From Thermoplasmatota archaeon (GTDB lineage: Archaea > Thermoplasmatota > Penumbrarchaeia > Penumbrarchaeales > Penumbrarchaeaceae): a stretch of DNA of 54,822 nucleotides. A program made the translations under genes and the position numbers. Each line of letters opens with the position of its first letter. Position 1 is the stretch's first letter. The stretch is taken from contig JARVGK010000020.1 of assembly GCA_029762535.1 (NCBI GenBank), positions 1-54,822 of the forward strand, in the 5' to 3' direction. Below the pieces are notes generated by a model. That model was given only the letters and a program-made list of their open reading frames with translations. It searched no databases and was not told the origin of the DNA. Below, piece after piece: positions 8,086 through 34,212 of this stretch.

Positions 8086-9582
8086 ATGCCAGGCAAAGAA
8101 CGAAAGGAGATCGAGGCATCCATACCGGTAGGGGCGGTCTTCGGCAACGTCGGGTCCTATTCCTTCAGGTGCGCTGTCATCGATGATACCCTGCGGGAAA
8201 TGGATCATGTCTCCTTCGAACACCCCACATGCGGCGAGGTGCTCGGGATCGTCTCATCGATCGAGCTGCAGTCTGACATGGGGCGAAATGAGGCTGCAAG
8301 CTCTGTGTATCGAAAAAAGGCGTCCACCACATGGACGGGAGTGGCAAAGATAGATGTGATCGGTTTCAGGGATCATAATTCCAATCTTTCAAGGCCGCTG
8401 ACGCCTGTACCCCCTTCGACCAAGGTCTTCAGGGCCTCGAGGACCTTTCTCTCCTCAGTTCTGGGGCTGGATGTCTTTAGGGAGAACGGAGCATACCTTG
8501 GCAAGGTCCAGAATTCCGACGTCGACGTCGTTCTGGACCCGGAGATATTGATACAAAAACACGTATCGATAATTGCGAAGACCGGCGCGGGAAAATCCTA
8601 TGCGTGCGGGGTCCTCATCGAGGAACTGTCAAAACACGACATACCCATTTTGATCATAGATCCGCACGGGGAGTATTCATCGATGATATCTCCCAACATC
8701 GACCCGGAGGAATACAGGAGAATGGGGCGCTTCGGGATCGATCCAAAGGGACTGGGGGGCAGAATAATGGAGTTCTCGATCGGAGCGGGATCTGGGGCCA
8801 CCCCCCTCGGATTGGACCCAAGGGCATTCAGGCCGGAGGAATTGCTGGAGCTTATCGGGATCAAGGCCGTGGGCCCGAACGCATCTATCCTTTACAACGC
8901 CTACCGAAAACTCAAGGCCGTGCTGGAAGAGGATTGGGACCTGTCGGACCTCTTGAGCGTGGTCGAGGCCGATCCCAGCATCGGAAAATGGGCGATCGCC
9001 TCAGGGCTTCAGCATATGGCATCTATGCCGATGTTCTCTGCCCCCAGGACACCACTTGGCGAGATAGTGAAGCGGGGGGCGATCTCGGTCGTTGACCTTA
9101 AGGAGGCGCCGCTCGACGTTCAGCAGATAGGGGTTGCGGCGTTGATGAAGAGGCTCTTTCAGGCGCGGAAGGAGGGGCTCATCCCACCCTTCATGCTCGT
9201 TGTGGAGGAGGCGCAGAACTTCTGCCCCCAGGGTTCGAGCACGATAACGTCCGAGGTCATGAGGGCCATCGCATCTGAGGGACGCAAGTTCGGCATGGGG
9301 TTATGCGTTCTCACCCAGAGGCCCGCCAGGATCGACAAGTCGGTCCTCTCCCAGTGTGGGACCCAGATAATATTGAAGGTCACGAACCCCAACGATCTTA
9401 AAGCCGTGATATCCTCAGTCGAGGGCCTGGACCCCAGGATGAGCGACGAGATCCAGATGCTACCGGTGGGACAGGCGATCATGGTGGGAGGAGGGATCGC
9501 TTTCCCCTTGATACTCGATATCAGGACAAGGCATACACGTCACGGCGGGGACTGCGTGAAATTCCTGCCGGAGCGGAATTGA
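8086..9582 (+). CDS. HerA-family (HAS-barrel/DUF87) ATPase or helicase
   Basis: AKTGAGKS Walker A, IDPHGEY, VVEEAQ Walker B, SEGRKFG, TQRP, SQC. Confidence 0.88.
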   Translation: MPGKERKEIEASIPVGAVFGNVGSYSFRCAVIDDTLREMDHVSFEHPTCGEVLGIVSSIELQSDMGRNEAASSVYRKKASTTWTGVAKIDVIGFRDHNSNLSRPLTPVPPSTKVFRASRTFLSSVLGLDVFRENGAYLGKVQNSDVDVVLDPEILIQKHVSIIAKTGAGKSYACGVLIEELSKHDIPILIIDPHGEYSSMISPNIDPEEYRRMGRFGIDPKGLGGRIMEFSIGAGSGATPLGLDPRAFRPEELLELIGIKAVGPNASILYNAYRKLKAVLEEDWDLSDLLSVVEADPSIGKWAIASGLQHMASMPMFSAPRTPLGEIVKRGAISVVDLKEAPLDVQQIGVAALMKRLFQARKEGLIPPFMLVVEEAQNFCPQGSSTITSEVMRAIASEGRKFGMGLCVLTQRPARIDKSVLSQCGTQIILKVTNPNDLKAVISSVEGLDPRMSDEIQMLPVGQAIMVGGGIAFPLILDIRTRHTRHGGDCVKFLPERN

Positions 9583-9632
9583 GAGGGTTAATTATTAATC
9601 CGTAATAGGACCTTTATGAACCAGGGATCATC

Positions 9633-9932
9633 ATGGTCGATAACAATACGATCAGCGAGGAGAGGATGAGAAAATACCTCGAGACCACCTCCAGGGCGCT
9701 GTCCATGATCAAGATCGCATCGCCTCCGAGATCCCATTTCTTCAGGCTTGCTGAGGATTTTCTGAACATGGCGAAATCCTATCATACCGATGCGGTCTCG
9801 TTCGCTAGGGAGGGAAACTATGTCAACGCCTATGGGGCTGTGAACTACGCCCATGGTTGGCTGGATGCCGGGGCCCGATTGGGGCTGTTCGATGTGAACG
9901 AGGACGATCAGCTCTTTACGCTCGCGGAATGA
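9633..9932 (+). CDS. DUF357 family protein
   Basis: MAKSYHTDA...GNYVNAYGAVNYAHGWLDAGARLG. Confidence 0.9.
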   Translation: MVDNNTISEERMRKYLETTSRALSMIKIASPPRSHFFRLAEDFLNMAKSYHTDAVSFAREGNYVNAYGAVNYAHGWLDAGARLGLFDVNEDDQLFTLAE

Positions 9933-9966
9933 ATTCGAACTATCATTCACGAATAATCAAAATAGT

Positions 9967-10266
9967 GGACCCATGGGGATTCGATGCTTAGAAAATCCCT
10001 ACGGATTTTCCGCATCTTGGGACCCAACAAGATAAATGATCGTTCAAGGTCCCAAGAACCAAGGTTCGAATCCAAATGTACATTGTTCTTGAAAATAATT
10101 AGAAAGCGGACCCATGGGGATTCGATGCTTAGAAAATCCCTACGGATTTTCTGCATCTTGGGACCCGCCATGATCAATGATCGTTCAAGGTCCCAAGAAC
10201 CAAGGTTCGAATCCAAATGTACATTGTTCTTGAAAATAATTAGAAAGCGGACCCATGGGGATTCGA
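9967..10266. repeat. Tandem 141-bp units, each bounded by the tRNA-Arg 3'-terminal 18 bp (GGACCCATGGGGATTCGA on +)
   Basis: The 18-mer starts at 9967, 10108 and 10249 (period 141). The two 123-bp intervening segments differ at 5 positions. Confidence 0.95.
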
Positions 10267-10321
10267 ACCCCAGTCTTCAGCTCCGGAGGCTAATAGGATA
10301 TCCAGGCTACCCTATGGGTCC
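10248..10321 (-). tRNA. tRNA-Arg (CCG)
   Basis: GGACCCA TA GGGT AGCCTGGAT ATCC TA TTAGC CTCCGGA GCTGA AGAC TGGGG TTCGAAT CCCCA TGGGTCC G folds as a cloverleaf. TTTATA promoter box at about 10355-10360. Confidence 0.95.
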
Positions 10322-10435
10322 ATGTCGGTTTGTAGTCCGAATGTAATGAGGACTATAAACCTTTACATGGTGATTAATAGGCTGGATAGACGGCCAAAGC
10401 CACTTTCGGGGCGGGGATAAATAATCTCTGTACGG

Positions 10436-10483
10436 AGGCCGGATCGGGGATCCGGCCTTAGGATATCCAGGCTACCCTATGGG
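10436..10483 (-). repeat. 25-bp exact copy of the tRNA-Arg 5' portion abutting a perfect 10-bp hairpin
   Basis: TAGGATATCCAGGCTACCCTATGGG at 10459-10483 is identical to 10294-10318. AGGCCGGATC-GGG-GATCCGGCCT lies at 10436-10458. Confidence 0.85.
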
Positions 10484-10494
10484 ATCCCACGGGA

Positions 10495-10641
10495 TCATTT
10501 CTTCTTGAACTCGGTAAAACCACATTTACCGCAGGAAAACCTGTCCTCATGATCGGCGAGGAAGGATCCCTCGCATTTGGGGCAGAACTTCCTATTCCTT
10601 GTAAGTTGACCTTCTTTGATCTCATAATGTTCCTTCGACAA
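10495..10641 (-). CDS. rps27ae: 30S ribosomal protein S27ae (eS31), TTG start, not in the ORF track
   Basis: [48 protein letters not shown], with a GAGGTG SD; follows rps24e. Confidence 0.95.
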
Positions 10642-10651
10642 TGAACCCACC

Positions 10652-10951
10652 TCACTTCTTCTTCTCCTTCTCTATCAGCTTGTTCCTGAGAAGGATATGC
10701 TTCTCCTCCACATACTTGGCCCTATCGAGGCTCTTGTATATCTTGGCATATCCCCTTGTCTCGCCCTTGCCGAACTCACCTTCGAACGAATCGATAACAA
10801 GGGTCTCCTTGGAGAGCTTCAATTCCTCCTTTAGCGCATCCTTCACAGCGCTCCTTGCCGGGGTCGTTTCCCCCTGATGCTTCACCTTGAAATCCACCTC
10901 GATGCGCTCGAGCGTCTGATTGTCATGCTTCTTCAATATCTCTATCTCCAT
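10652..10951 (-). CDS. rps24e: 30S ribosomal protein S24e
   Basis: [29 protein letters not shown]. Confidence 0.96.
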
Positions 10952-10955
10952 CCGA

Positions 10956-11474
10956 TCACACCTCCATCTCGCGGAGCATATCCTTGACCTTTATCTTGAT
11001 AGCCTTATCCACGTTAACAACAACTAAACCAGCATCAGGTTGTCCGTAAACCACGGTCCCTCCTACCGGTAGAAGATCTATACAAGGGAGAGTTGCCAGA
11101 TCCTCCTCTCCATCCACATCGATCAGTATCGGGCCATTCCTCTCGTCATCGACGATTATATTTCTCATCGATTCAATAATGGCCTTCATAAGCTCAGGAC
11201 CGATGATGCCCGCCCCGTTCTTGACCTTGAGGGTCTTCCAGGGCTCCACCATGAGTGTGGGGATCTCCCTGCCTCTCTTGGTGTGATTGTCCACAAGTAT
11301 AATATCGGGTATGAAACCCATTCTGGTCATGACCGATGCCGTGACATCGCCCACTAGTACGAGCGGCCTGGTTATGATATCCTCCATTCGGCCTCTGGTC
11401 CTTTCCTCGTTGGGGATTAGGATCCCCAAAGGAAGTTTCAATTCGGACCTTAGATGATTGGTCAGTACATACAT
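10956..11474 (-). CDS. GTP-dependent dephospho-CoA kinase (DUF359)
   Basis: LKLPLG, VGDVT, VDNHTKR, VDGEEDL, YGQP; conserved position between spt4 and rps24e. Confidence 0.92.
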   Translation of the reverse strand: MYVLTNHLRSELKLPLGILIPNEERTRGRMEDIITRPLVLVGDVTASVMTRMGFIPDIILVDNHTKRGREIPTLMVEPWKTLKVKNGAGIIGPELMKAIIESMRNIIVDDERNGPILIDVDGEEDLATLPCIDLLPVGGTVVYGQPDAGLVVVNVDKAIKIKVKDMLREMEV

Positions 11475-11484
11475 CGAAGATACC

Positions 11485-11670
11485 TCATCTCACCTTGAGG
11501 GCGTATTTCCCATTGCCCTTGATCCCCATATGCCTCGCTACTTCCGACTGGGTATGATCAACGATGACGATCATTCCCTGCCATTCCTTGGAGACCTCCC
11601 CCCCACAGCTAGGACAACTTTCCTGTTCTGTCAGCATCATGCATTTCTTGCAGGCGAGCATCATGATCAC
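11485..11670 (-). CDS. spt4: Transcription elongation factor Spt4 (RpoE2)
   Basis: ACKKC, CPSCG, WQG, SEVA, GKYALKVR. Confidence 0.96.
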   Translation of the reverse strand: MIMMLACKKCMMLTEQESCPSCGGEVSKEWQGMIVIVDHTQSEVARHMGIKGNGKYALKVR

Positions 11671-33986: not shown

Positions 33987-34072
33987 GCGGGGGTGGCTCA
34001 GCCCGGTACGGCGACGGATTGCTAATCCGTTGACCTTCGGTCACGGGGGTTCAAATCCCCCCCCCCGCGCCA
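33987..34072 (+). tRNA. tRNA-Ser (GCT), CCA encoded
   Basis: GCGGGGG acceptor pairs with CCCCCGC. Anticodon arm ACGGA-TTGCTAA-TCCGT, variable arm TGACC-TTC-GGTCA, T-arm GGGGG-TTCAAAT-CCCCC. Confidence 0.96.
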
Positions 34073-34212
34073 ACTATCTCTCGTCAATGTTCAATTGCTA
34101 CGATAGTTGGCGCTCGACATCAATCAGATACGAAAAATGCCAAAGTGAACATTGCTACTTCTCTTTCGCACGAGGAGGCGTTATTAGTCCGCTCATATGA
34201 AATGGATATCGA

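Follow-up and report, generated by a model that had tools for sequence, protein, structure and literature searches.

A tandem array of fold-back units behind an archaeal tRNA-Arg gene as one locus of a candidate order-wide family of protein-less tRNA-end cassettes

The 54,822-nucleotide stretch analysed here (contig JARVGK010000020.1 of assembly GCA_029762535.1, a Thermoplasmatota archaeon of the order Penumbrarchaeales; hereafter the window) carries an intact tRNA-Arg(CCG) gene on the minus strand (10247..10321; ARAGORN; Rfam tRNA model 54.7 bits, E = 2e-10), which hosts a downstream array of two tandem units. We characterised this array and its homologues in the rest of the genome, a 2.96-Mb metagenome-assembled genome (MAG) of 102 contigs that is 93% complete, and across the order. 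Unit 1, proximal to the tRNA, is 141 nt long (10105..10245, minus strand; found by Tandem Repeats Finder (TRF) and by a repeat search), and the distal unit 2 (9964..10104, minus strand) is also 141 nt long and 96% identical to unit 1. The two score 111.3 and 112.6 bits, respectively, with R1, a covariance model of the unit family introduced below as family A. TRF reported a tandem period of 141 bp with 2.2 copies, 94% matches and a score of 565. Read in the tRNA sense, each unit terminates in the last ~20 nt of tRNA-Arg(CCG). A 21-nt repeat family recurs at 9964, 10105 and 10246 with a spacing of exactly 141 bp, and an 18-nt core, GGACCCATGGGGATTCGA, is exact in all three copies (9967, 10108 and 10249), as an earlier note on this DNA had described. 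The identity block runs from U55 of the tRNA through the discriminator plus 1 in all three copies; the copy that ends unit 2 has an A instead of the discriminator G. The T-run behind the tRNA gene is only T3-T4 (TTTCTAATTATTTTC). No promoter-like motif was seen within a unit when the sequence was read by eye, and a promoter of the AAAGGTTTATAG type is present in no unit.

In the tRNA sense, unit 1 proceeds from a T/A-rich spacer with T-runs through an 11-nt antisense copy of the T-arm, GGATTCGAACC (10204..10214, minus strand; 10063-10073 in unit 2), a mini-stem and two hairpins, H3 and H4, to a copy of the tRNA end that starts at U55. The 5' part of the antisense T-arm pairs with the unit-terminal TCGAATCC (helix H1), and the GGTTC that follows the arm pairs with the 3' part (mini-stem H2). 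The closing helix of the unit is GGATTCGA/TCGAATCC. H3 has a 10-bp stem, TCTTGGGACC/GGTCCCAAGA, and a 23-nt loop (unit 1, 10156..10198, minus strand, with stem arms 10156-10165/10189-10198; unit 2, 10015-10057, minus strand, with stem arms 10015-10024/10048-10057). H4 is formed by AGAAAATCC/GGATTTTCT (unit 1, 10131..10152, minus strand, with stem arms 10131-10139/10144-10152; unit 2, 9990-10011, minus strand, with stem arms 9990-9998/10003-10011) and has the motif GGAAAAYC-loop-GRTTTTYC, which is common to all unit families that we distinguished (A, B and C). The earlier note had named these stems and the antisense piece, and we recovered all of them, but it had joined the stems in a three-way junction, whereas a four-way junction with an extra mini-stem, GAACC/GGTTC, fits better. 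It had also placed four of five differences between the units in the region enclosed by a stem. Four do fall in the loop of H3, but the total is six, with one further difference at the base of H4 (A-U to G·U) and one at the distal discriminator.

Beyond unit 2 lies what looks like the degenerate start of a third unit (9930..9963, minus strand; read from the sequence and found by the repeat search), consisting of a spacer-like stretch and a remnant of the antisense T-arm, AGTTCGAATTCA, and extending into the stop codon of a convergent DUF357 gene (open reading frame (ORF) 9633-9932). With this gene on one side and rpS24e-rpS27ae on the other, the locus sits in an ordinary archaeal housekeeping neighbourhood. 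Two ORFs that span the array (9947-10216 on the minus strand and 9984-10346 on the plus strand) have no match to Pfam or to a protein family. A cmscan of positions 9000-11500 returned no match to Rfam RtT at E values up to 10, and the tRNA itself was the only significant hit. Each spacer also holds a perfect self-complementary 10-mer, AATGTACATT (10075-10084 and 10216-10225), which is not kept in the tRNA-Arg units of relatives.

The 358-nt stretch containing the array folds far better than shuffled sequences on either strand (z = -7.1 and -7.7). In the 52 distinct units from eight genera that we analysed for covariation, 95.5% of cells form pairs and double-sided changes occur at 21 of 28 pairs; shuffled and slid controls lie far below. 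Double-sided changes were found in all 10 pairs of H3, and all seven pairs of H4 covary. The antisense base opposite T-loop position 57 (column 7/210) tracks the host tRNA, forming C-G in 27 units, U-A in 23 and U·G in two. The conserved fold is thus strongly supported by covariation. It is specific to the tRNA-sense strand: G·U oppositions there number 52 and A·C oppositions six, purine-purine mismatches (48) exceed pyrimidine-pyrimidine ones (10), and 35 of 50 units are more stable when folded as the sense strand. Hairpin-loop sequences are not conserved across units. Some hairpin features look DNA-like, namely a 2-nt TT loop in the middle of the fold-back, seen in 22 of 50 units, and triloops, the short hairpin often having C(GAA)G, GCGAAGC or TTT triloops.

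The units of family A share a general order in the tRNA sense: a T/A-rich spacer, the antisense T-arm, either 'TT' or, in longer variants, a central loop of 20-25 nt, the 5' strand of the sense T-stem with TTC, H3 (a 10-bp hairpin), H4 (a hairpin of 7-9 bp) and the tRNA end from U55. In many of them the antisense T-arm runs on into the acceptor strand. Each unit thus repeats the tRNA T-arm and 3' end as a fold-back, with a pair of hairpins set in the T-loop. Once folded, the strand reproduces the complete T-arm and 3' end in duplex form, broken at T-loop positions 54-56 by the hairpins.

Homologous units were identified in the same genome behind tRNA-Arg(TCG) (two units) and tRNA-Arg(GCG) (one unit), the last of which ends in the different 3' end of the GCG tRNA itself. 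A scan of all tRNA genes in the genome revealed ~18 tRNAs with exact downstream copies (at least 14 nt) of their own 3' end, in units of 91-192 nt with up to four or more per tRNA, and at least eight tRNAs with upstream copies of their own 5' end at a period of ~160-175 nt. There are at least three families of downstream units (A, B and C), all of which have a GAAAAT...ATTTTC hairpin and which may be mixed in one array. The identity blocks of families B and C begin at about position 59/60, and that of family A at U55. At tRNA-Thr(CGT) (contig C22:6700-7120), two downstream family-A-like units are inverted relative to the tRNA, and the tRNA gene itself stands in for the next antisense arm. An exact-pattern scan of genome contigs for family C gave no match outside this genome. 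Relatives reached with a protein from the window were uncultured Thermoplasmatota of the EX4484-6 type.

The family-A model R1 matched all 26 genomes of the order (all 24 of the family, including this one, and both of the sister family) with 2-23 matches per genome, and gave one marginal match among 11 genomes of the same class outside the order. All 38 matches with context are located 24-63 nt downstream of a co-oriented tRNA, at tRNAs for at least 10 types of amino acid. Copies beside other tRNAs, variation in copy number and compensatory changes, which the earlier note had proposed to look for with a covariance model, were thus all seen. It had also allowed for homologues that lack covariation or an association with tRNAs; those found have both.

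Two subtypes could be distinguished among the five tRNA-Arg units of the genome, one comprising both CCG units and the distal TCG unit and the other the proximal TCG unit and the GCG unit. Over the 121 nt that do not derive from a tRNA, members of the first subtype are 89-96% identical (89-90% between the CCG units and the distal TCG unit), the proximal TCG and GCG units are 80% identical, and identity between subtypes is 75-80% (78% for the CCG units against the proximal TCG unit). The stem of H3 contains a compensated pair, GGGACC/GGTCCC in the CCG units against GGGATC/GATCCC in the distal TCG unit. Without exception, the tRNA pieces embedded in the downstream units derive from the local tRNA, and the same holds for the upstream modules at the CCG and TCG genes described below. 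Several tRNA-Arg loci thus have modules in common, while the tRNA ends are local. Copy number at the tRNA-Arg genes of relatives ranges from one to four; in one relative tRNA-Arg(GCG) is followed by four identical units, and in one congener tRNA-Arg(TCG) has none. We compared orthologous loci in 19 genomes, four of which have tRNA-Arg(CCG) beside the DUF357 gene. The contig of one of these stops 89 nt past the tRNA, and the syntenic loci carry two, one and two units.

A mirror module lies upstream of tRNA-Arg(CCG) (10322..10494, minus strand; repeat search). It holds a 25/25 copy of the 5' part of the tRNA (positions 5-29) at 10459-10483, followed by a perfect 10-bp hairpin at 10436-10458 and a CCGTACAGAG/T-rich stretch, and its tRNA-proximal part contains the promoter-like AAAGGTTTATAG (10353-10364) followed by the leader that belongs to the real tRNA. 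A comparable upstream module precedes tRNA-Arg(TCG) on another contig, and its 5' piece is that of the TCG tRNA. The upstream modules at window positions 10322-10494 and at stretch L002 1858-2200 combine a promoter-like AAAGGTTTATAG and a leader with 25-30 nt from the start of the tRNA, a GC hairpin and a T-run. In this they resemble short transcription units that are complete in themselves, and RNAs resembling 5' tRNA fragments could be their products.

We favour, with a probability of about 0.45, the interpretation that this array is a single instance of a family of tiny 'tRNA-end cassettes' found throughout the order: protein-less integrative cassettes that fold as single strands, are moved in trans and form arrays through re-insertion and unequal crossing-over. 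The observations that bear on this are the anatomy of the units, their conserved strand-specific fold, a strict link to tRNA 3' ends, module exchange between loci and variable copy number. Strict tRNA linkage with local ends, the exchange of modules, the existence of several families, variable copy number and a content that restores gene ends all point to a selfish cassette rather than to a host RNA gene. Furthermore, the fold-back image of the T-arm and the break of identity in the T-loop fit recombination at the T-loop. Judging by their sequence, the cassettes would carry what keeps a tRNA gene working, with a 3' end and a T-run in the downstream units and a promoter, a leader and a 5' end in the upstream ones.

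In the mechanism that we propose, the tRNA-sense strand would fold as single-stranded DNA and its two arms would recreate the duplex image of the T-arm and 3' end. A recombinase acting in trans would then exchange strands in the T-loop, candidates being a host enzyme of the XerA type, a transient tRNA-targeting integrase, or host homologous recombination via the ~20-nt tRNA-end repeats. Insertion would leave an intact tRNA, then the cassette, then the displaced copy of the tRNA end, which would again be a target, and arrays could grow by re-insertion and by unequal crossing-over between units. The single-stranded active form, the crossover point in the T-loop and the enzyme are what we infer here.

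The earlier note had offered two explanations, and both survive as candidates. Its mini integrative element, which restores its target and grows into arrays, gains support from homologues with local ends at many tRNAs, from shared modules, from the range of one to four copies, from an identity block that begins in the T-loop as with class II tRNA-targeting integrases (PMC1762012) and from the classical integrase gene located between tRNA-Trp and its array in this genome, but an enzyme that moves the units is missing. Its structured RNAs cut from the tRNA trailer agree with co-orientation and the G·U excess, against which stand the T-run terminator at the start of each unit and the lack of a promoter of their own. 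Beyond what it had described are the spread across the genome and the order, the mirror 5' modules, including one in the window, and the finding that the antisense and sense pieces together make a fold-back of the whole T-arm.

Several points weigh against mobile cassettes. No mobilising enzyme was found or correlates with the units across the order. Genomes of good quality carry just one or two tyrosine recombinases, of which the constant one is XerA-like; the XerA-like enzymes alone are near-universal, and other integrases are sporadic, with no second universal one among the 26 genomes, many of which are incomplete. XerA is not known to act on tRNA genes. There is no integrase in the window, as the earlier note had stated, and the only two PF00589 matches of the genome, one XerA-like recombinase and one integrase at tRNA-Trp, are on other contigs. 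No IntI-type integrase was seen, although no specific search was made beyond the PF00589 counts. The 93%-complete genome has no Y1 transposase (PF01797, zero matches), no TnpB (PF07282, only a sub-threshold match) and no reverse transcriptase, and the one Cas1 that it encodes is part of an ordinary CRISPR locus. No virus-borne or free copy was found (zero matches in a scan of IMG/VR with one exact pattern only), and the comparison of orthologous loci yielded no clean pair of filled and empty sites. The antisense arm of the window units fits only the T-loop and T-stem well, the longest run complementary to the acceptor part being 5 against a background mean of 4.9; tailoring of the acceptor part is clear in some other units (runs of 7-10). 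A simple crossover in the T-loop would bring in the acceptor strand of the donor, so that a further step, for example repair using the displaced copy, would be required for spread to tRNAs with different 3' ends. Finally, a transcribed RNA would account for co-orientation and the G·U excess just as well.

We considered several specific origins and rejected them. The tRNA-Trp integrase was discounted as a general mobiliser, as it has homologues in five of the 26 genomes of the order and its flanks have no similarity to the units. An origin from IS200/IS605 or TnpB elements was set aside in the absence of such genes from the genome, and retro-mobility, in which the 3' copy would be the product of a primer-binding-site-like stop, in the absence of a reverse transcriptase. 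A casposon was rejected on the grounds that the sole Cas1 adjoins a 52-spacer CRISPR array. A link to CRISPR was considered because the TRF consensus of that array resembled the hairpin region of the units, and was dropped because none of the 52 real spacers matches the units (chance hits of 13-18 nt). A C/D-box guide RNA for methylation of the T-loop was also dismissed, as the antisense piece lacks flanking C or D boxes and Rfam snoRNA hits have E values of 0.2-9. The CRISPR array itself is located on contig C5 (stretch L054 9182-15041), with a 36-nt repeat, 52 spacers and an adjoining 555-aa ORF containing Cas1, and is interrupted by an insert of ~2 kb with a 401-aa ORF.

The C-terminal part of a tyrosine integrase is encoded directly behind tRNA-Trp at the end of contig C53 (stretch L055 2219-2599). 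The start of contig C102 (stretch L028 1-800) holds a winged-helix ORF, a 16-nt copy of the tRNA-Trp end, two family-A units of the Trp type and one family-C unit. The two contig ends probably belong to one small integrated element that was split by the assembly. The position of the integrase between tRNA-Trp and a displaced 16-nt end with Trp-type units suggests a classical element integrated between tRNA-Trp and its unit array, and this shows that tRNA ends of this kind serve as attachment sites in this genome. Related integrases are found at tRNA 3' ends in relatives, in only five of the 26 genomes of the order.

The closest known kinds of element are the tRNA-linked repeats (TLRs) of E. 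coli, which share the hallmark without homology, and the tRNA-attachment-site arrays of integrative elements, which have the same identity block but bear an integrase. TLRs have been known since 1978, with no accepted origin and mostly no function. [quoted passage not shown] Like TLRs, the units described here are downstream of a tRNA, co-oriented with it and end in its 3' end, and are single or arrayed at many loci. Unlike TLRs, they have an archaeal host and no match to the sequence and structure of Rfam RtT (RF00391), and they add an antisense copy of the tRNA end, a four-way fold-back, several families, upstream 5' modules and a far larger share of the tRNAs. Class II tRNA-targeting integrases such as that of Ms6 use an attB core whose identity block encompasses the T-loop and runs to the tRNA 3' end, with a core of 26 bp in Ms6 (PMC1762012). 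Elements of this class resemble the units in the extent of the identity block, in restoring the tRNA and in displacing an end that can be targeted again. The units differ from them in being 141 bp long, in having no integrase and no cargo, and in that identity begins at U55 rather than at the 5' strand of the T-stem; they also hold an antisense arm and conserved hairpins, always carry the local end, and have no integrase that co-occurs with them across the order.

Protein-less or hitch-hiking elements that recombine as folded single strands are exemplified by CTXphi and the integrative mobile elements exploiting Xer recombination (IMEX), which use XerCD (PMC3442271, PMC4246890), and by integron attC sites (PMC4792948). 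As in CTXphi attP(+), IMEX and attC, the units form an imperfect inverted repeat whose fold on one strand is conserved while the sequence varies. By analogy, they may also be likened to these elements in folding to an image of a duplex site with a protruding structure, in having no recombinase of their own, in regenerating the target and in forming arrays. Unlike CTXphi attP(+) and attC, they would target a tRNA gene rather than dif or attI, they are gene-less, and their recombination is a hypothesis. Miniature inverted-repeat transposable elements derived from IS200/IS605, and palindrome-associated elements, are likewise small, gene-less, hairpin-rich, multicopy and active as single strands; the genome, however, has neither Y1 transposase nor TnpB, and the units are bounded by tRNA-end copies of ~20 nt. 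Insertion of IS200/IS605 makes no target duplication. Casposons, in which the Cas1 casposase generates a 14-15-bp target duplication at tRNA 3' ends, differ in that no Cas1 exists here outside the CRISPR locus. Limited full-text literature searches found nothing on such arrays in archaea and did find the literature on E. coli TLRs. New in this work are the model search at the level of the order, the test of strand asymmetry, the reading of the units as T-arm fold-backs, the two subtypes across three tRNA-Arg loci and the integrase context at tRNA-Trp.

The order presents a richer version of TLRs, with dozens of units per genome, several families, both tRNA ends, covariation, strand preference and exchange between loci, and this richness makes the question of origin and function testable. 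If mobile, the units would rank with the smallest known site-specific elements and would illustrate how a folded strand can imitate its tRNA gene target. We consider it rather unlikely that they go further and constitute a new class of protein-less mobile DNA, whose strand would imitate the T-arm and 3' end of the tRNA gene, bear a twin-hairpin 'handle' where the crossover takes place, hijack a host recombinase or repair, insert behind tRNAs and, in mirror form, before them, and have its arms re-tailored for each tRNA. Such a class could be an archaeal, tRNA-directed counterpart of IMEX and attC, and a possible origin of the E. coli TLRs.

The main alternative, which we regard as possible but doubtful, is that the units serve a function within the tRNA transcript, as the archaeal equivalent of the E. 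coli TLRs. Read-through past the weak T-run would produce a trailer with a four-way junction, in which the repeated 3' end would direct tRNA-like 3' processing, and the outcome would be either the release of structured RNAs of ~140 nt or a modulation of tRNA maturation or termination. This would amount to a large undescribed class of archaeal tRNA-trailer RNAs. The strict co-orientation and adjacency to a tRNA in 38 of 38 cases, the excess of G·U (52) over A·C (6) on the tRNA-sense strand with its more stable folding, the strong covariation and the retention of units at tRNA-Arg genes across genera are all in its favour. E. coli TLRs, which have the same hallmark, are co-transcribed and processed, and three of them are small RNAs (PMC8144298). 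The T3-T4 run makes read-through plausible behind this tRNA, but several others are followed by T5-T6, a terminator-like T-rich stretch opens every unit, and no unit has a promoter of the AAAGGTTTATAG type. Features of the fold also count against it: the fold-back centre can be a 2-nt loop, triloops dominate the short hairpin, and the hairpin-loop sequences are not conserved. A 2-nt loop cannot be closed by RNA. Presence and absence among close relatives, several unrelated families and swaps between loci would be unusual for a host RNA gene, the tRNA-Thr(CGT) array is inverted relative to its tRNA, and the units match no Rfam family.

It is improbable that the units are inert scars, in which integrase-bearing elements inserted at the T-loop lost their cargo and the leftovers were duplicated and homogenised among tRNA-Arg loci by unequal crossing-over or gene conversion. 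Integrase elements of this order do use tRNA 3' ends as attachment sites, and an identity block from the T-loop to the 3' end is what is found at attL and attR (PMC1762012). The 20-nt direct repeats favour slippage or unequal crossing-over, and the four identical units in one relative look like a recent product of either. However, a conserved, strand-specific fold counts against scars. Neither a covarying four-helix fold in 52 distinct copies from eight genera, nor the strand-specific mismatch spectrum, nor a compensatory change in H3 between paralogues as recent as the CCG units and the distal TCG unit would be expected of them, and the flanks of the sole integrase element seen share no similarity with the units.

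We give very little weight to the idea that the units are pieces of disrupted tRNAs, either bulge-helix-bulge introns inserted in the T-loop or extra 3' exons used by tRNAs that are split or joined in alternative ways. Non-canonical tRNA introns and split tRNAs do occur in archaea (PMC4033280, PMC3978253), and the sense pieces GGTTC ... TCGAATCC do flank the two hairpins as exons would flank an insert in the T-loop. However, the intact tRNA-Arg(CCG) requires no splicing, no unit supplies the middle part of a tRNA with the anticodon arm, and the canonical introns of the tRNAs of this genome have no similarity to the units. A hand check, made with no dedicated program, found no bulge-helix-bulge: for the central 4-bp helix, GAAU (positions 57-60) would need AUUC where the insert begins, and the insert starts with UUGG/UCUU. 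Duplication of a single unit by the assembly is just as hard to credit, for although the MAG has 102 contigs and its arrays are often at contig ends or beside N runs, the units differ at six sites, and further arrays of homologous units occur independently on two other contigs and in 25 other genomes.

The second tRNA of the window, tRNA-Ser(GCT), is followed by a perfect 12-bp fold-back, GCGCCAACTATC ... GATAGTTGGCGC (33987-34147), the first arm of which takes in the encoded CCA end. Behind it, with no copy of the tRNA 3' end, is the start of a family-C unit hairpin (ACGAAAAATGCC). Elsewhere in the genome, N runs and contig ends occur inside or beside tRNA-linked arrays on contigs C7, C23, C47, C69 and C5 (e.g. 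L003 1200-1226 and L025 2446-2500), and array lengths in this MAG are accordingly minimum values. Where ARAGORN predicts an intron of more than 400 nt in this genome, the call is very probably false. The tRNA-linked arrays break assemblies at tRNA genes, and annotation may mistake them for integration scars or pseudo-tRNAs.

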